A stretch of 64,000 nucleotides of DNA from an uncultured bacterium. GTDB lineage: Bacteria > Verrucomicrobiota > Kiritimatiellia > RFP12 > UBA1067. The position numbers and the translations under genes are program-made. Positions 4,619 to 63,758 of the stretch are shown here, piece after piece. The stretch is from positions 1,408 through 65,407 of the forward strand of contig CACYQU010000005.1 of the NCBI GenBank assembly GCA_902776615.1. Reading direction: 5' to 3'. Numbering within the stretch: position 1 is the stretch's first letter; each line of letters begins with the position of its first letter. A model generated the notes under the pieces. The model was not told the DNA's origin and did not search any database. It saw nothing but the letters and a program-made list of their open reading frames with translations.

Positions 4619-5082
4619 TGAAAAAGGCATTTACACTTGTTGAGCTGCTGGTCGTGATTGCAATGATCGCGATACTGACCGGCGCCGTCGGAACATCTGT
4701 TTCCGGCGCGCGGGCACGCGCCCGCGAGATGAAGGCGACCGCCGAGGTGAAGGAGATGACGAACGCGATTCTCGCATACGAGAACTACGCGCGCGCCGGG
4801 GGCTATGGTCTCGAGACGATGGACGCCGACGCCACCATAAGCACGGTCGGCTTCATACTCGGGAAGGGCGAGACTTCCGATTCGGGCGAGAAGATACCGG
4901 TGCTTTACAACGGCGCGGTCGGCGCGGACGGCACTTTGCGGGATCCATGGGGCAAACCTTACAGGGTGAGGATTGTCGAGGGCACAGTTCCTTCAGTCTC
5001 GTCCACCGCCGCCAGTTCGATGGCGACCGGCTATATGATGCCTAACTTCTACAGACTTTCGATAGGGGAGCGCAACAGATGA
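4615..5082 (+). CDS. GspG-like (major-type) pseudopilin paralogue
   Basis: ATG 4615 overlaps the upstream TGA. The N-terminus is MMKKAFTLVELLVVIAMIAILTG and the C-terminal DPWGKPYRV matches the GspG DPWGxxY signature. The longer ORF-track start at 4597 is unnecessary. Confidence 0.75.
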   Translation: MMKKAFTLVELLVVIAMIAILTGAVGTSVSGARARAREMKATAEVKEMTNAILAYENYARAGGYGLETMDADATISTVGFILGKGETSDSGEKIPVLYNGAVGADGTLRDPWGKPYRVRIVEGTVPSVSSTAASSMATGYMMPNFYRLSIGERNR

Positions 5083-8000
5083 AATCGACACGTTCCAGAC
5101 GGGGAAGCGCGCTTCTCATAGTGCTCGGCATGCTTGCGTTCATCGTCGTGTCGGCCGTGGCGTTTGCGGCCTATATGCGTGCATCGCGCCTGCCCTCAAG
5201 CTATCTAAGGCGAACCGCCGCCGCGAGAATGCTCGCCAAGGCCGCGATATCGCAGGCGATAGAGCAGATCGACACCGCAATCGCCAACAATCCTTATCCA
5301 GACCAGCGCACGGGAACGCAGCTGCCTTCTCAGAAGCGCGTCGAGAATCTGAACGAAACAGGCGGCGAGTGCCGCAACTACTGGTGGCACAACATCTTCA
5401 TCGGCGACGATACCTGGATGCGCCCGGAGGACACGGTCTCAACGCTTACGCTCGAGGGCCTCGCCTACATTCCGCCGCCGCTCGTGAACGAGGCGCGCCG
5501 CTATTCGCGCATGTCAAAGGCCGCGACCTGGCACACGATGGGTTTCGATTCGGGGCGGTATGCGTTCTGCGCGATTGACGTGTCGGACTGCCTGGACATC
5601 AACCGCCTCGTTGCTGATGGTCGCCGCAATTCTGGCGCGCGCCGCATAACGCTCGCCCACCTGTTCGAGAATGACACGCACACGTCGTATGCACAACAGC
5701 CGTCCGGCTGGGAAACGTTCATGAGCGACTACCGCGCCAAACTCGCCGACGATCAGGAATCTTCCCAGCCGAGGTTCACGCAGGCGAAGCTGCCGCTCGT
5801 GTCGCTTGCCGACTGGAACCTCGCCGCGTACGCGAAATCGGCAGGTGGAGTGGAAAGCCCGTTCTGCAAGTTCATCGAAGGCTCTGGTACGGAATTCTAC
5901 AAGGGCGTAGGTTCTCCTACCGGTGCTGAAGCAGACAAAGTGCGTGCCATGCATTTCGTTACCGACAGTTACTTCCCGCCGGTGGAGCTTCAAAGCGACG
6001 AGTGCGACCTTTGCTCTTACGAAGGCCAGCCTTTCGATTCGTTTAGCGACAATATACCGCTGTTTAGGATTCTCGCAATGGGCGAAACCGGTTCGCGCGG
6101 CATGCAGCTGATAAACAAGAAGGTTTCAAAGATGGATCTAATAAACCTCTACGACTACCTCGACGGCAACGACGTGCCAGTTTCTCTCGCCGTGCCCACG
6201 ACAGAGCGTGTTCCAATGATTTGCGCAGTAAAGCCCGGCTTGGTATCGTCTTTCGCGCTCAACGGCAACCCGCTTGTTTCCGAAGACAAGAACGCGCAGA
6301 CGAAGACCAACACACAGATTTACGAATACAAGTTGAACGGTGCTGAACTCCTTAAGATGGGAATGATCGAGACATGGGCCGCCTTTCCATTCCGTCGCGA
6401 CGAGGCCTCGAATGACAACTTCACTTATGAGGGAAGCCTTAGGCTCTTTCTGGCACCATCTGGTGTTCCGCTAAGATGCGGAAGCGGCAGTCAATTTAAT
6501 AGATTGCGTCCTGCCGACGATGCCGACTGGCAGAAAGACAGGCAGTATGAAAATGGCGTGTTCAAGGTGAAGCTTGCCGCGCAGGGCCAGCCGATATTCA
6601 CCAATATCCAAAAAGAGGAAGACGCCGTAAAGAAGTTGAACTTTCCAGTGCAGCTGGGAAGTCTCGCCAACGCATTTTCAGACCCCGTGTTTCGTCTAAA
6701 AGTTAGCTACCCGTACGATCCGAAGACGGGTGTTACCGATACCACCCAGCCTACATATCTGGAGGCTCATTGCTCCTATCCCCCGCTTACGATTGACGGC
6801 GAGATAAACGACGCGTACGCGAACGACGCCAAGTTCCTTCAGATGATGAAGGATGGTGGCGGCGAACAGCTTACGCTATATGCGGCTGTCTACATACGGG
6901 TGAAGAACAGTGAAGGCAAGACGGTTGATATGGTGCCAGCAGGATATAAAGATGATTTGTTGAACGGAGTTAATAATGAGCAGCCACGACCGGATATCCC
7001 TATCTCGATATGCGGTCAACCTGTTCCGATTTTGCGCTTTACAGGGTCGCAACAGATTACATACAGCCCGAGGGGGTTTGATTCCCTGCCAACGGGTCAG
7101 CAGACATTTACTCCGAGCTGTGTGATGTGCCCCGACCCGCGATTCAACCATGCTCCCGAGAACTGGATGGAGAAAAATGTCGCGTCCGAGGCCGACTGGA
7201 TAAGGGAGTGCGGCGCGGCAGGTCGTGATGGCGATATCTTCATGTTCGTATCCAATCAAGAGTATCTGCAATCTATTTACGAACTGTCGTTCCTCCCCAA
7301 CTTCAGTGAGTTGAACCGCTCTGGCGACATGATGCGGGGCAATTGTCATACGCCGGCTGGAAACAGTACGGCGTATCCGCAGAGTATTGCGGATTGTGCC
7401 AACGGAAACCTCATGTGGAATACATATCGCTGCTATCCAAACCAAAACGGCGGTCGGCACGACTTCGAGAGTATCGGGCTTGTAGTGAACGATGGTGCGT
7501 TTCGCGTCAATCCCTTTGCACAGTCCGTGGACGCTCTTATGCCGGCTTTCGCCAACACGCCGTACGACTGGTGGGCTGCCTCCACAAACAATCCCGATAT
7601 AACCGTAAGCGACTGCGATTCTGCAAAGACATTCAACTCTAAGTATGCTTTCAGCCAGATGAACAACAAGGCAAAGTTCGCCTGGGAAGATTTGCGGAAT
7701 ATAGCGAAGTATTTCCGCGAAGAGGTTCGCAACAGTGAGGGCAATTGGGAAGATGCCTTCGACAAGCTAAAGTGGGATGGCGACAGCGACCACTTCGGGT
7801 CTGAAACCGAACTGAGCAGCGATACGGACGAGCTTTACGGTGTGGATCGCAAGTTCCTTTACGGTTTCTGGCATGATTCGTTCGCGAACCGCCAGCAGCT
7901 GTTTTTGGTGTTCGTTCGCGCCGAGCCCATGATGATGGGCGGCGGTGGCGTCGGGCAGACGCCGCCCTCGCTTGGCGCGCGCGCCGTCGCGCTCGTCTGG

Positions 8001-8090
8001 CGCGATCCGGCGGCTCCAGAGCCGCAAGGCGGCAATAGCCTGGATACGCCGCACCGTACGCGAATTCTCTTTTACAGGCAGTTCGACTGA
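5079..8090 (+). CDS. Giant GspK-like minor pseudopilin (1003 aa)
   Basis: The N-terminus MKSTRSRRGSALLIVLGMLAFIVVSAVAF resembles the GspK leader (RGxALlxVL with no Glu at +5). It occupies the last position of the pseudopilin run and is about three times normal GspK length. Confidence 0.6.
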   Translation: MKSTRSRRGSALLIVLGMLAFIVVSAVAFAAYMRASRLPSSYLRRTAAARMLAKAAISQAIEQIDTAIANNPYPDQRTGTQLPSQKRVENLNETGGECRNYWWHNIFIGDDTWMRPEDTVSTLTLEGLAYIPPPLVNEARRYSRMSKAATWHTMGFDSGRYAFCAIDVSDCLDINRLVADGRRNSGARRITLAHLFENDTHTSYAQQPSGWETFMSDYRAKLADDQESSQPRFTQAKLPLVSLADWNLAAYAKSAGGVESPFCKFIEGSGTEFYKGVGSPTGAEADKVRAMHFVTDSYFPPVELQSDECDLCSYEGQPFDSFSDNIPLFRILAMGETGSRGMQLINKKVSKMDLINLYDYLDGNDVPVSLAVPTTERVPMICAVKPGLVSSFALNGNPLVSEDKNAQTKTNTQIYEYKLNGAELLKMGMIETWAAFPFRRDEASNDNFTYEGSLRLFLAPSGVPLRCGSGSQFNRLRPADDADWQKDRQYENGVFKVKLAAQGQPIFTNIQKEEDAVKKLNFPVQLGSLANAFSDPVFRLKVSYPYDPKTGVTDTTQPTYLEAHCSYPPLTIDGEINDAYANDAKFLQMMKDGGGEQLTLYAAVYIRVKNSEGKTVDMVPAGYKDDLLNGVNNEQPRPDIPISICGQPVPILRFTGSQQITYSPRGFDSLPTGQQTFTPSCVMCPDPRFNHAPENWMEKNVASEADWIRECGAAGRDGDIFMFVSNQEYLQSIYELSFLPNFSELNRSGDMMRGNCHTPAGNSTAYPQSIADCANGNLMWNTYRCYPNQNGGRHDFESIGLVVNDGAFRVNPFAQSVDALMPAFANTPYDWWAASTNNPDITVSDCDSAKTFNSKYAFSQMNNKAKFAWEDLRNIAKYFREEVRNSEGNWEDAFDKLKWDGDSDHFGSETELSSDTDELYGVDRKFLYGFWHDSFANRQQLFLVFVRAEPMMMGGGGVGQTPPSLGARAVALVWRDPAAPEPQGGNSLDTPHRTRILFYRQFD

Positions 8091-8111
8091 TAATCGGAGG
8101 GATTGCAGACA

Positions 8112-9017
8112 ATGGTCAAATCATATGCGGGAAAAGGCTTCACCCTTGTGGAGCTGCTGGTGGTAATCGCCATCATTGGAATACTCACCGGTGTTCTTTT
8201 GAGCACTTTCGGCGGCGCGACGGAGTCCGCGCGCTCGGCGAAGTGTCTTTCGAACATGCGCAACCTGGCGGCCGCCTGCCAGAATTACGGCATGTCGGCG
8301 GGGCACTATCCGCTGGCCGCGTCGCTCGAATACTCCGAGCTGGACGAGTCGCAGGGCATTCGCCGTGTAAAGGAGCTCTTCCACGAACGCAAAGGTTGGG
8401 TTTCGTGGGCGTCGGAGGGTGCATACAACGGCGCGGTTACGAGTTCGAAGGCAAGCAAGGGCTGGTTCAAGTCGGCATACGAAGACGACGATCGCGTGGT
8501 GAAGCACTGTCTGACCAATGGCGCGATATGGAAGTACGTCTCGGCCAACGCAGCCGTGTATACGTGCCCGGCGCATATCAAAAAAGCCAAGCGAAACGTG
8601 AACTGGAGCTATGCCATGAACGCGTACTTCAGAGGCGATGTCACAATGTCATGCAAGGCGTTCGACAGCACTGACGCAGGCGTCGAATACGGGCGGCTCG
8701 CCCGCGCTGACAGGCGGCTGCTCTTTGCGGAGCTGCCTTTCGCCGACGAACTGGACGAAACGCTTGAGGCGAGCGATCCCATTCTGCAGTACAAGGGACT
8801 TACCGGCTACGGCGGTACGCCCGACAGGCTGCACTTCAATCACATAATGGGCAAGCGGCGTTGTGCGCATGTTGCGTATGCTGATGGCCATGTCGACAGG
8901 CTTATCATGCCCACGGCCGGCATATCCGACGGAGAAAGCACCGAACTGCTCCAGTGGCTCTGCGAAGGCAAGGACATAAGCTTCGGCGGCTCAGAGTATA
9001 GAAAGATGGACGACTAA
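8112..9017 (+). CDS. DUF1559-type prepilin-leader protein
   Basis: The N-terminus is ...GKGFTLVELLVVIAIIGILTG. This is followed by ARSAKCLSNMRNLAAACQNYGMSAGHYPLA and a C-terminal ...AHVAYADGHVD motif, as in DUF1559 proteins. ATG 8112 lies 11 nt after GGAGG; TTG 8103 is too close to the SD. Confidence 0.75.
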   Translation: MVKSYAGKGFTLVELLVVIAIIGILTGVLLSTFGGATESARSAKCLSNMRNLAAACQNYGMSAGHYPLAASLEYSELDESQGIRRVKELFHERKGWVSWASEGAYNGAVTSSKASKGWFKSAYEDDDRVVKHCLTNGAIWKYVSANAAVYTCPAHIKKAKRNVNWSYAMNAYFRGDVTMSCKAFDSTDAGVEYGRLARADRRLLFAELPFADELDETLEASDPILQYKGLTGYGGTPDRLHFNHIMGKRRCAHVAYADGHVDRLIMPTAGISDGESTELLQWLCEGKDISFGGSEYRKMDD

Positions 9018-62098: not shown

Positions 62099-62107
62099 TG
62101 ATATAAT
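62099..62107 (+). promoter_or_regulatory. Extended -10 promoter (TGaTATAAT) for the antitoxin/toxin pair
   Basis: The motif is exact and belongs to the same 15-mer as at 46965. A GAAAGGA SD at 62124-62130 and ATG 62139 follow. Confidence 0.5.
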
Positions 62108-62138
62108 ATGCGCCGTAGCCAGTGAAAGGAACAAAGCC

Positions 62139-62363
62139 ATGCCAATAGCAATGATTATGGATGAAGTGCGGAGCCGCCCGGTCGAGGAACGTGCGGTTTT
62201 CGCTGATGCTATCTTGCAGACCTTGAATCCCGTGGATGACTCCCTTCAGAGTAAGTGGCTGAATGTCGCCGAAAAGCGTAGAGCAGAAATCCTGTCTGGC
62301 GCCATCCGTCCGATTCCGACCTCCGAGGTTTTGTCCGAAGCATACGCGCGAGCTATGGCATGA
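62139..62363 (+). CDS. Putative addiction-module antitoxin (TIGR02574-like, partner of RelE/ParE toxins)
   Basis: It is 74 aa and shows ...RPVEERAVFADAILQTL...SKWLNVAEKRRAEILSGAIRPIPTSEV.... This is the typical pattern for the family. Confidence 0.65.
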   Translation: MPIAMIMDEVRSRPVEERAVFADAILQTLNPVDDSLQSKWLNVAEKRRAEILSGAIRPIPTSEVLSEAYARAMA

Positions 62364-62569
62364 AAAGCGCAATGCACCCGGGAGCCCGCGAGGAGTTCCT
62401 TGCGGCAATCGACTACTACAACGACGCCGAACCTGGTCTTGGCATGGCGTTTTATTCAGAGATAGAAGACGCAATCGCAGTAGTTTTTCTTGTATTTGCG
62501 GGGTTTTGCCAGATATTACCATTCCGTATAGACATGATGCGCGGAATAGGGTATAATATCGGCATATAA
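62360..62569 (+). CDS. RelE/ParE-family toxin, short (69 aa), with a non-canonical C-terminus; possibly truncated or decayed
   Basis: The N-terminal 44 aa, ...HPGAREEFLAAIDYYNDAEPGLGMAFYSEIEDAI, match ParE-like toxins. The remaining 25 aa lack the usual ...RRFPYxIxY core, and the gene is about 25-30 aa shorter than usual. Confidence 0.5.
   Translation: MKSAMHPGAREEFLAAIDYYNDAEPGLGMAFYSEIEDAIAVVFLVFAGFCQILPFRIDMMRGIGYNIGI
62552..62557 (+). promoter_or_regulatory. Possible -10 box (TATAAT) for the DUF3990 cassette, inside the toxin gene 3' end
   Basis: An exact TATAAT lies 37 nt upstream of ATG 62595. Confidence 0.3.
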
Positions 62570-62594
62570 AAAACAAGTTAGGTGCGGGAAGCCA

Positions 62595-63083
62595 ATGACA
62601 GTCTACCATGGCAGCAATGTTGAGGTGCGAGAGCCCAAAATCCTGAAGCCAAACCGCGAGTTGGACTTCGGGAATGGGTTTTATACTACAACCAACATTG
62701 ACCAGGCGATAGCCTTTGCCAAACGGGTTGCGCGTAATCGCGGTACGGGCGTTCCAACGGTTTCTGTGTATGAAATAGATTTAGACACCGCTTTTTCGGC
62801 CTGCAACGTCGTAAAGTTCGACGGTGTCTGCGACGCATGGCTGGATTTCGTGTGCGACAACCGTGACGGGGCGTACTCCGGCCCTGCGTATGATTTCGCT
62901 TTCGGTCCGGTTGCCAATGATGACGTCTATCGTACTCTTTATCTTTATCGAGGTGGAGAGATAGATCGCGAAGAGACGTTCAAGCGGTTGAAGGTCAAGA
63001 CGCTTTACAACCAGTTGGTTTTTGCTTCGTCTTTGGCACTGTCGTTCATCCGCTTCAGAAAGTCGGAGGTGTTTGATGTATGA
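62595..63083 (+). CDS. DUF3990-family protein (162 aa)
   Basis: The N-terminus MTVYHGSN...DFGNGFYTT and the overall length match my recollection of DUF3990. DUF3791-type genes follow, which is the usual pairing. Confidence 0.7.
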   Translation: MTVYHGSNVEVREPKILKPNRELDFGNGFYTTTNIDQAIAFAKRVARNRGTGVPTVSVYEIDLDTAFSACNVVKFDGVCDAWLDFVCDNRDGAYSGPAYDFAFGPVANDDVYRTLYLYRGGEIDREETFKRLKVKTLYNQLVFASSLALSFIRFRKSEVFDV

Positions 63084-63318
63084 CAAACGGCACAGTGCGC
63101 TGCTGACGGTCATTGTGCCGATGGTTGTCGGAGAGATGGTTCGGGCATACGGCATTGACGAGAAAACCGCCGCCGAGAGGTTCTATGCGTCTCGTGTTTA
63201 CGCAGAACTCTCCGATGAAGGCCGGAAGCTGTGGCACTATTCGCCCAAGGTTCTCTTTTCTCTTTACGACGAAGAGATCAAAACCGGGAACATAACATAT
63301 CCAGAGGAGGCGTTCTGA
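63076..63318 (+). CDS. DUF3791-like small protein (80 aa)
   Basis: ATG 63076 overlaps the DUF3990 stop. It shows ...ERFYASRVYAELSDEGRKLWHYSPKVLFSLYDEE... Confidence 0.55.
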   Translation: MYDKRHSALLTVIVPMVVGEMVRAYGIDEKTAAERFYASRVYAELSDEGRKLWHYSPKVLFSLYDEEIKTGNITYPEEAF

Positions 63319-63521
63319 TGAGCGAGGAAGGAAAGTTTCTTGTCTTCTGCATGGAATGCTACCGTGCGGAGAAAGGCCTTACGGGTCGCGAGGTGTCTGA
63401 GTTGTTCGCGAAATACGGCGTTTCGGATTACGTGATGCGATATTTCGATTCACTTCATACGACCGGCGTCAAGTATATAGTCGCCGACATCGCTGATTTC
63501 ATCCGTTCACGTGCGGCATAG
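63318..63521 (+). CDS. DUF3791 small protein (67 aa)
   Basis: ATG 63318 overlaps the upstream TGA. It reads MSEEGKFLVFCMECYRAEKGLTGREVSELFAKYGVSDYVMRYFDSLHTTGVKYIVADIADFI, the canonical family pattern. Confidence 0.65.
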   Translation: MSEEGKFLVFCMECYRAEKGLTGREVSELFAKYGVSDYVMRYFDSLHTTGVKYIVADIADFIRSRAA

Positions 63522-63527
63522 GGGGCA

Positions 63528-63621
63528 GAATTGTTGCCAATGTGCAAATATCCAATACCAATGCCAATATCCAATTGGCAACATTGGCAGTGGCAACTGG
63601 CAACAATTCCACATTGGATAT
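63528..63621. repeat. CCAAT/ATTGG- and TGGCA-dense repeat block with interleaved inverted repeats
   Basis: About 85 bp contain 5x CCAAT, 3x ATTGG, 4x TGGCA and 2x TGCCA. ATATCCAAT occurs twice (63548, 63567) and its complement ATTGGATAT once (63613). GAATTGTTGCC (63528) pairs with GGCAACAATTC (63599). Confidence 0.8.
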
Positions 63622-63758
63622 TCTCTAAGGCATCTTCCAAAACACATTTCCTGCACTCGTTCGGCACGACCCGAAAGGCCGCGTCGCGGGCGCGCTTTGC
63701 GTCCAATCTGCTCATTTTCACGTGAATCATTCTTAACTCAAGTTAAAGGAGAAACGTC

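Follow-up and report, generated by a model that had tools for sequence, protein, structure and literature searches.

What kind of system is encoded by the compact three-gene cassette at positions 62595-63521 of the DNA analyzed here, a 64,000-nucleotide stretch of contig CACYQU010000005.1 from an uncultured bacterium of the Kiritimatiellia (hereafter the window)? An earlier reading of the letters alone, the original prediction, had proposed that the first gene encodes an effector with the motifs of an ADP-ribosyltransferase (ART), that two small neighbors serve as its antidotes or regulators, and that the three together form an uncharacterized toxin-antitoxin (TA)-like or phage-defense-like module. 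Through the present analysis, we came to view the cassette, with about as much doubt as conviction, as a self-contained, horizontally mobile tripartite TA-like or abortive-infection module. The linkage of its three genes, the predicted fold and conserved residues of the first product, its occurrence on mobile elements, and its agreement with a catalogued defense candidate all bear on this reading, and each is considered below.

All three genes lie on the forward strand, and the open reading frames (ORFs) proposed for them were confirmed, overlaps included. Gene 1 (62595-63083) encodes a 162-residue DUF3990 protein, the predicted effector; gene 2 (63076-63318) encodes an acidic, all-helical protein of 80 residues that is a divergent relative of DUF3791; and gene 3 (63318-63521) encodes a DUF3791 protein of 67 residues. 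Genes 1 and 2 overlap by 8 nt (63076-63083), and the stop codon of gene 2 has one base in common with the start codon of gene 3 (TGATG, 63316-63320). An AGGTG ribosome-binding site precedes the ATG of gene 1, and those of genes 2 and 3 are of the GGAGG type, that of gene 2 lying 5 nt upstream of its ATG. The arrangement is that of translationally coupled genes, and the same three were called independently on six metagenome contigs that carry an identical locus.

Do the three genes belong together? When one genome of each GTDB species was scanned, 555 relatives were confirmed, and the best 80 (46 to 93% identity) were analyzed; these represent Kiritimatiellia, many Clostridia, Spirochaetes, Fusobacteria, Bacteroidales, Lentisphaeria, Phycisphaerales, Oxalobacter, and Anaeroplasma. 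The order gene 1-gene 2-gene 3, tightly packed, was found at all 77 loci that could be evaluated (at the remaining three, the contig ends within the locus). More divergent relatives occur on 49 viral contigs of IMG/VR, and 45 of these carry all three families, frequently in the permuted order DUF3791-DUF3990-gene 2. The co-occurrence of DUF3990 and DUF3791, which had been put forward as a check on the idea, thus proved essentially obligatory at genomic (77/77) and viral (45/49) loci alike. The components also occur fused in pairs: DUF3990 with a gene-2-like domain (P0171 and P0222), DUF3990 with DUF3791 (P0201), and a gene-2-like domain with DUF3791 in a 149-residue protein encoded upstream of DUF3990 on the Bacteroides plasmid pBF9343 and some 80 related plasmids. 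At one locus (L064), an orphan gene 3/gene 2 pair stands without DUF3990. When the window was compared with L001 (gene 1 93% identical, flanks unrelated), the ratio of nonsynonymous to synonymous substitution (dN/dS) was 0.059 for gene 1, 0.056 for gene 2, and 0.028 for gene 3. The trio is a true unit under purifying selection (dN/dS 0.03 to 0.06). Its small, overlapping genes, constantly partnered putative toxin, and single partner-only orphan pair (L064) show the linkage expected of a type II TA system, the exceptions being four viral-contig loci (L093 and L137-L139) that we discuss below.

Two further observations concern the composition of these loci. One rumen genome (L005:6826-10108) packs three DUF3990 paralogues into 3.3 kb: a solo protein of 228 residues and two cassettes, one in the window order and one permuted (DUF3791-DUF3990-gene 2). 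At 22 of the 80 loci, mostly from Clostridia, an additional conserved gene (about 103 codons; LPKGT...YYYLKYRDGKKV...KRRHIE) ends 4 nt inside the start of DUF3990, as in L007:7693-8004, L079:7690-8004, and L070:7693-8004. Its product has a subthreshold match to DUF6788 only, and the gene, absent from the window, may be an optional fourth component.

Neither the ART relationship nor the module is new, the two having been largely anticipated by the placement of DUF3990 in Pfam's ART clan (PMC7955679) and by the PADLOC candidate PDC-M13. PDC-M13 is one of the 145 untested phage-defense candidates of Payne et al. 2024; it was predicted through "guilt-by-embedding," outside the tested systems, and was assigned from two cyclic orders of three families, as given in the supplement (bioRxiv 10.1101/2024.01.29.577857). 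From rumen genomes, 3,324 copies have been reported (PMC13356809). In the window, three adjacent same-strand genes match the A, B, and C models in order and strand (gene 1 to PDC-M13A, E 8.5e-61; gene 2 to PDC-M13B, 5.9e-26; gene 3 to PDC-M13C, 1.5e-30), and both published orders correspond to arrangements that we found. We saw no structural difference from the catalogued kind; the window copy lies outside any defense system. It is an ordinary, intact member of the PDC-M13 kind that would not surprise a specialist. What can be added to the catalogue entry is an invariant H-Y-aromatic-Q constellation in the first protein, never with Glu; a reading of the two small genes as distant paralogues; pairwise fusions of all three components; and a cyclic permutation of gene order between lineages.

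What, then, is the product of gene 1? Its assignment to DUF3990 held up well: residues 1-154 span positions 1-152 of the 152-position Pfam profile (PF13151; E 1.4e-42, 145.4 bits, cut-off 32.2). Sequence searches of the PDB with gene 1 and with the DUF3990 profile returned nothing meaningful, and NCBIfam models cover none of the cassette proteins. An AlphaFold (AF2) model built from 30 homologues reached a mean predicted local distance difference (pLDDT) of 90.7 and a predicted template modeling score (pTM) of 0.84. The credible Foldseek matches of this model are ART folds exclusively. Against the PDB, these were an Xre-RES toxin (9r35_A; 9.9e-4), PARP1 with an NAD+ analogue (9.7e-3), Arr (3.7e-2), and ParT (6d0h_A; 0.16), with a diphtheria-toxin homologue, pertussis S1, and tankyrase ranked lower. 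Among the viral models of BFVD, the top match was one protein without a name (7.5e-12; TM-score 0.74), and the best named matches were two ART-PolyVal proteins (1.2e-5 and 7.2e-4), with PARP-like and Arr-like proteins below them. Sequence provided similar bridges. ART-PolyVal matches were seen in 22 of 53 diverse DUF3990 members, all subthreshold (best 2.8e-4; 15 to 20 bits versus a gathering threshold of 31.2), and PARP matches came from three of the 53. The strongest sequence link to PARP was provided by the divergent DUF3990 proteins of L137 and L138 (5.4e-5 and 1.2e-4 against Pfam PARP). The relationship to ART folds that the original prediction had offered for structural comparison is therefore supported by the model and by these sequence bridges.

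The motifs claimed for gene 1 were all found at the residues given for them, namely, YHGS at 4-7, GFYTT at 28-32, and YNQLVF at 138-143. Each residue of the proposed H-Y-Q triad falls on a predicted strand: H5 in strand 1 (2-7), Y30 in strand 2 (28-32), and Q140 in a later strand (138-143). In an alignment of 53 relatives at 34 to 53% identity, H5 and G6 are each conserved in 51, S7 in 47, and Y30 in all 53; a W or F stands at position 41 in 47, and a D or N at position 139 in 43. Q140 is present in 52, the remaining protein having R and none having E or D. W82, R90, D100, and G104 are conserved in all 53, and D109 is conserved in 49. Y30 and the aromatic residue at 41 are 11 positions apart, the same spacing as in PARP1 (Y896-Y907) and diphtheria toxin (Y54-Y65). 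DUF3990 thus resembles these enzymes in carrying HGS, (F)Y(T), and YN-x on strands 1 and 2 and a later strand at comparable spacing, with the second aromatic at +11; the corresponding PARP1 motifs are HGS, YFA, and YNE (Table 1 of PMC7955679), and its tetrad is HYYE. It differs in that their catalytic Glu is Gln in DUF3990, in being much smaller, and in a sequence similarity that stays below threshold (PARP 5e-5, from divergent members). Because H5, Y30, and Q140 are conserved and lie on strands, gene 1 fits the H-Y-[EDQ] clade, which Aravind 2015, as cited in PMC7955679, defined to include Q.

The small proteins were both claimed as DUF3791, and here the outcome was divided. Gene 3 passes the Pfam model comfortably (PF12668; E 1.1e-18, 67.4 bits, cut-off 25); gene 2 has no match to it at E<0.1 and is a transitive relative only. 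Gene 2 carries a conserved motif of its own (FY.S..Y..L..E..KLWH.SP...TG.I.YPEE). Direct homology between the two was not detected by BLASTP, and two hhalign runs gave a probability of 1 to 2%. A jackhmmer search started from gene 2, however, reaches a protein of the three-paralogue rumen locus (L005:9887-10105; 2e-15) that itself passes DUF3791 (31.1 bits, 2.3e-7), and the model of a fused gene 2/gene 3 homologue consists of two similar four-helix halves (pLDDT 85). From this transitive link and the predicted structure, we read genes 2 and 3 as ancient, distantly related paralogues. Foldseek found no match below E 1 for the fused model, with no solved relative among its targets, and PDB sequence searches with the family profiles of genes 2 and 3 likewise gave no match.

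Is the cassette mobile, and what would its mobility serve? The window and L001 are homologous from about position 62519 through the stop codon of gene 3, and from this we take the mobile unit to be a promoter plus the three genes. A promoter-like site (62529-62557, forward strand; TAGACA-17 nt-TATAAT) matches 11 of 12 consensus positions. L001, in an otherwise unrelated genomic context, conserves the segment from about 62519 to the gene 1 ATG, and L002 and L003 have a TATAAT-like box at the equivalent position. The AT-richer islet noted in the original prediction is real: the G+C content of 62100-63750 is 0.505 versus a window mean of 0.608, the lowest stretch within the 64 kb. Among segments of this size, the standard deviation is 0.03, and 0.16% are as low; the cassette itself lies 10 points below its host. 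Relatives of DUF3990 occur in 85 plasmid records, 28 of them conjugative. On B. fragilis pBF9343 (L087, 4555-6615), the genes for the fused gene 2/gene 3 protein and DUF3990 are followed immediately by a small ORF and a gene of the zeta-toxin family, so that in this conjugative plasmid family two putative toxin modules adjoin each other near the transfer genes. Such findings invite the view that the cassette is a plasmid or mobile-element addiction module, working by the same toxin-antidote logic with no role in phage defense, so that cells losing the element are poisoned. The plasmid records, the zeta-toxin neighbor, the unrelated chromosomal contexts with foreign G+C content, the TA remnant beside the window copy, and the lack of defense neighbors at most loci would all fit. 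Nevertheless, copies embedded in bacteriophage exclusion (BREX) systems of two species, which are the basis of the PDC-M13 assignment (bioRxiv 10.1101/2024.01.29.577857), weigh against this view, and we consider a pure addiction role rather unlikely. Many TA modules do both jobs, and the two roles are not exclusive.

BREX-embedded copies occur in Blautia caecimuris DSM 29492 and Johnsonella ignava ATCC 51276, and we confirmed such embedding directly: at L024 and L045, from two species, a type 1 BREX system carries the cassette between its pglX and pglZ genes. These are 2 of the 80 loci, and with no recurring family among the neighbors, the suggestion that the cassette would be enriched in defense islands fared poorly; as a general property, we rejected it, the neighbors being heterogeneous. 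We likewise rejected the notion of a phage-typical gene family, given that 6 of 50,697 phage records match the cassette and that PHROGs is nearly empty of it: gene 1 has a weak family there, and genes 2 and 3 have none. The same data bear on another possibility, that the cassette serves counterdefense or host manipulation, with the enzyme modifying a target in the host or in a rival element on entry and the small proteins acting as adaptors or chaperones. ART-PolyVal (PF18760) is the closest named family to DUF3990 both by structure and by the subthreshold matches of the 22 members mentioned above, and just this role has been proposed for the phage ART-PolyVal proteins. Conjugative plasmids with the cassette near transfer genes, the 49 IMG/VR contigs, and the DUF3990 genes without partners on viral contigs can be read in the same way. 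ART-PolyVal itself is a domain of giant multidomain proteins of phages and conjugative elements that are thought to be injected with the DNA, whereas DUF3990 is a stand-alone protein of about 160 residues with dedicated partners. Against a counterdefense role, most copies are chromosomal and alone in gut and rumen bacteria, phage records and PHROGs contain next to nothing of the cassette, and embedding in BREX fits defense better. We regard this role as distinctly improbable.

For the TA-like or abortive-infection reading that we prefer, a mechanism may be outlined. The ART-fold enzyme of gene 1 would bind NAD+ through H5-G-S, Y30, and the aromatic residue at 41, and would transfer ADP-ribose to, or consume NAD+ against, a cellular or phage target. 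The obligate Q140, preceded by D or N, would serve where PARP and diphtheria toxin use the catalytic Glu. The predicted four-helix proteins of genes 2 and 3 would jointly bind and silence the enzyme, which a trigger (e.g., infection by a phage or loss of the mobile element) would then free. A possible precedent for toxicity is provided by the type VI secretion system, as DUF3990 tips Rhs effectors, among them S. marcescens Rhs5 and E. bugandensis RhsA, as their variable C-terminal domain (PMC4524185, PMC10763514).

Several points weigh against this interpretation. The TM-scores of the gene 1 model to solved ARTs are modest (0.41 to 0.45). The equation of Q140 with the catalytic Glu is our reading of its motif and strand position. 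Substitution of Gln for Glu cripples classical ART toxins and turns PARP1 into a mono-transferase. Because of this, the gene 1 enzyme may be weak, may use another chemistry, or may only bind NAD+. All three cassette proteins are mildly acidic, and the contrast of basic toxin and acidic antitoxin is absent. Neither the fused model nor its Foldseek comparison revealed an antitoxin, DNA-binding, or ADP-ribose-removing fold in the small proteins. Among 134 flanking genes at 39 loci, no family recurs, the commonest being Resolvase (3/134). The viral contig L093 (2629-4418) encodes an intact DUF3990 followed by an ORF of which the first 25 or so residues are gene-2-like; gene 3 is absent. The second ORF continues as ParB-like and DNA-methyltransferase-like, judged by reading the sequence rather than by a Pfam search. 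L093 is a broken cassette in which the putative toxin was kept, and a lethal toxin predicts otherwise. The same applies to the divergent DUF3990 proteins of 202 to 212 residues on three other viral contigs (L137:2884-3522, L138:2983-3591, and L139:2983-3594), at which gene 2 and gene 3 partners were not detected.

Some of these points can be taken further, to the view that DUF3990 is a noncatalytic ART-fold sensor of NAD+ or ADP-ribose, or a scaffold, and that the trio is a regulatory complex. Q in place of E or D at position 140 would then reflect lost transferase chemistry, and both the persistence of DUF3990 without intact partners at L093 and the absence of a charge contrast would be unsurprising. 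We think this quite unlikely. A strictly conserved set of residues (H-G-S, Y30, the aromatic residue at 41, Q140, W82, R90, D100, and D109) suggests a working active site, the H-Y-[EDQ] clade admits Q by definition (PMC7955679, citing Aravind 2015), and DUF3990 serves as a toxin tip in Rhs proteins (PMC4524185). Given so many invariant residues, a pseudo-enzyme is less likely; the obligate Gln would point to mono-transfer to a reactive acceptor or to a different chemistry.

How does a tripartite module built on such an enzyme compare with known systems? Like DarTG, the cassette is a compact operon that opens with the gene for a small ART-fold effector and is completed by partner genes, occurs on mobile islands, and has a proposed role in abortive infection. 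DarG, however, is a macrodomain protein, whereas the cassette partners are two all-helical proteins of some 70 to 80 residues; a macrodomain was sought in genes 2 and 3 and in the flanks, and none was found, so that enzymatic reversal of the DarTG type is not evident. DUF3990 and DarT are also separate Pfam families, and the cassette has Gln at the position of the catalytic acid. With ParST and Xre-RES, the likeness lies in the effector, a RES toxin and ParT being among the best structural matches of gene 1. Those systems are two-component, with NAD+-using toxins blocked through direct binding by an Xre-type helix-turn-helix antitoxin; the cassette has no helix-turn-helix antitoxin, has two partners rather than one, differs in gene order, and carries an H-Y-Q triad in place of one of the R-E-S type. 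In comparison with type II TA systems generally, genes 2 and 3 show neither a neutralizing nor a DNA-binding antitoxin fold.

One further proposal, albeit speculative, is that DUF3990 represents a distinct branch of the ARTs, marked by the obligate Gln together with W82, R90, D100, and D109, with a noncanonical NAD+ chemistry (e.g., ADP-ribosylation of a nucleic-acid phosphate or base), and that it is caged by a phage-sensing DUF3791-type heterodimer of an anciently duplicated, previously unseen four-helix fold. We consider this possible but doubtful. Were it true, the cassette would be a new abortive-infection system, tripartite and ART based, that is abundant among bacteria of the gut and rumen. 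Bacterial immunity increasingly features ADP-ribosylating toxins (e.g., DarT, ParT, RES, and CmdT), and PDC-M13 is among the commonest of the uncharacterized candidates. If the system is active, it would offer a new effector-regulator architecture and possibly a new ART chemistry; if it is inactive, it would be one more small mobile TA-like cassette. In either case, it is a sound experimental target, as its conserved residues and natural fusions point to clear mutants and complexes.

The surroundings of the window copy also merit comment. On one side lie housekeeping genes for FtsK, DAC, FtsH, and a 4HBT thioesterase, and on the other a gene for an FGE-sulfatase-domain protein. A search for an empty site found the cassette on every contig that encodes an identical neighboring 4HBT thioesterase. 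The TA module that the original prediction placed next to the cassette survives in part. An intact PF09720 antitoxin gene is present (62139-62363, forward strand; Pfam Unstab_antitox, 1.1e-8), but the toxin is reduced to a 69-residue stump (62360-62569, forward strand). A weak match (E 0.1 to 0.5) to annotated RelE/ParE toxins covers residues 6-38 of this stump, the likeness being confined to the N-terminal 38 or so residues; beyond these, the remainder is low-G+C sequence that reaches into the cassette promoter. The cassette probably replaced the 3' end of a RelE/ParE-like gene, and its arrival would thereby have truncated the toxin and left the PF09720 gene as an apparent orphan antitoxin. 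The pair does not stand beside the cassette in L001, L002, or L003.

Downstream of gene 3, the dense repeat block that had been described turned out to be a real feature, a CCAAT/ATTGG-rich imperfect palindrome in the intergenic region (63528-63622, no strand assigned), the left arm of which holds five CCAAT copies and the right arm copies of ATTGG. Its predicted hairpin has a folding energy of -33.4 kcal/mol (z -2.5). We considered it as a possible part of the module and rejected it, as it is not conserved in L001-L003, has no match in Rfam, and has no second copy within the window. Apart from the cassette islet, the window has a single other low-G+C stretch, of about 0.52 around 6000-7700. 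It lies inside a 1003-residue ORF (5079-8090) without a Pfam match, and the ORF that follows (8103-9017) carries an N-terminal methylation motif of the type IV pilin-like kind.

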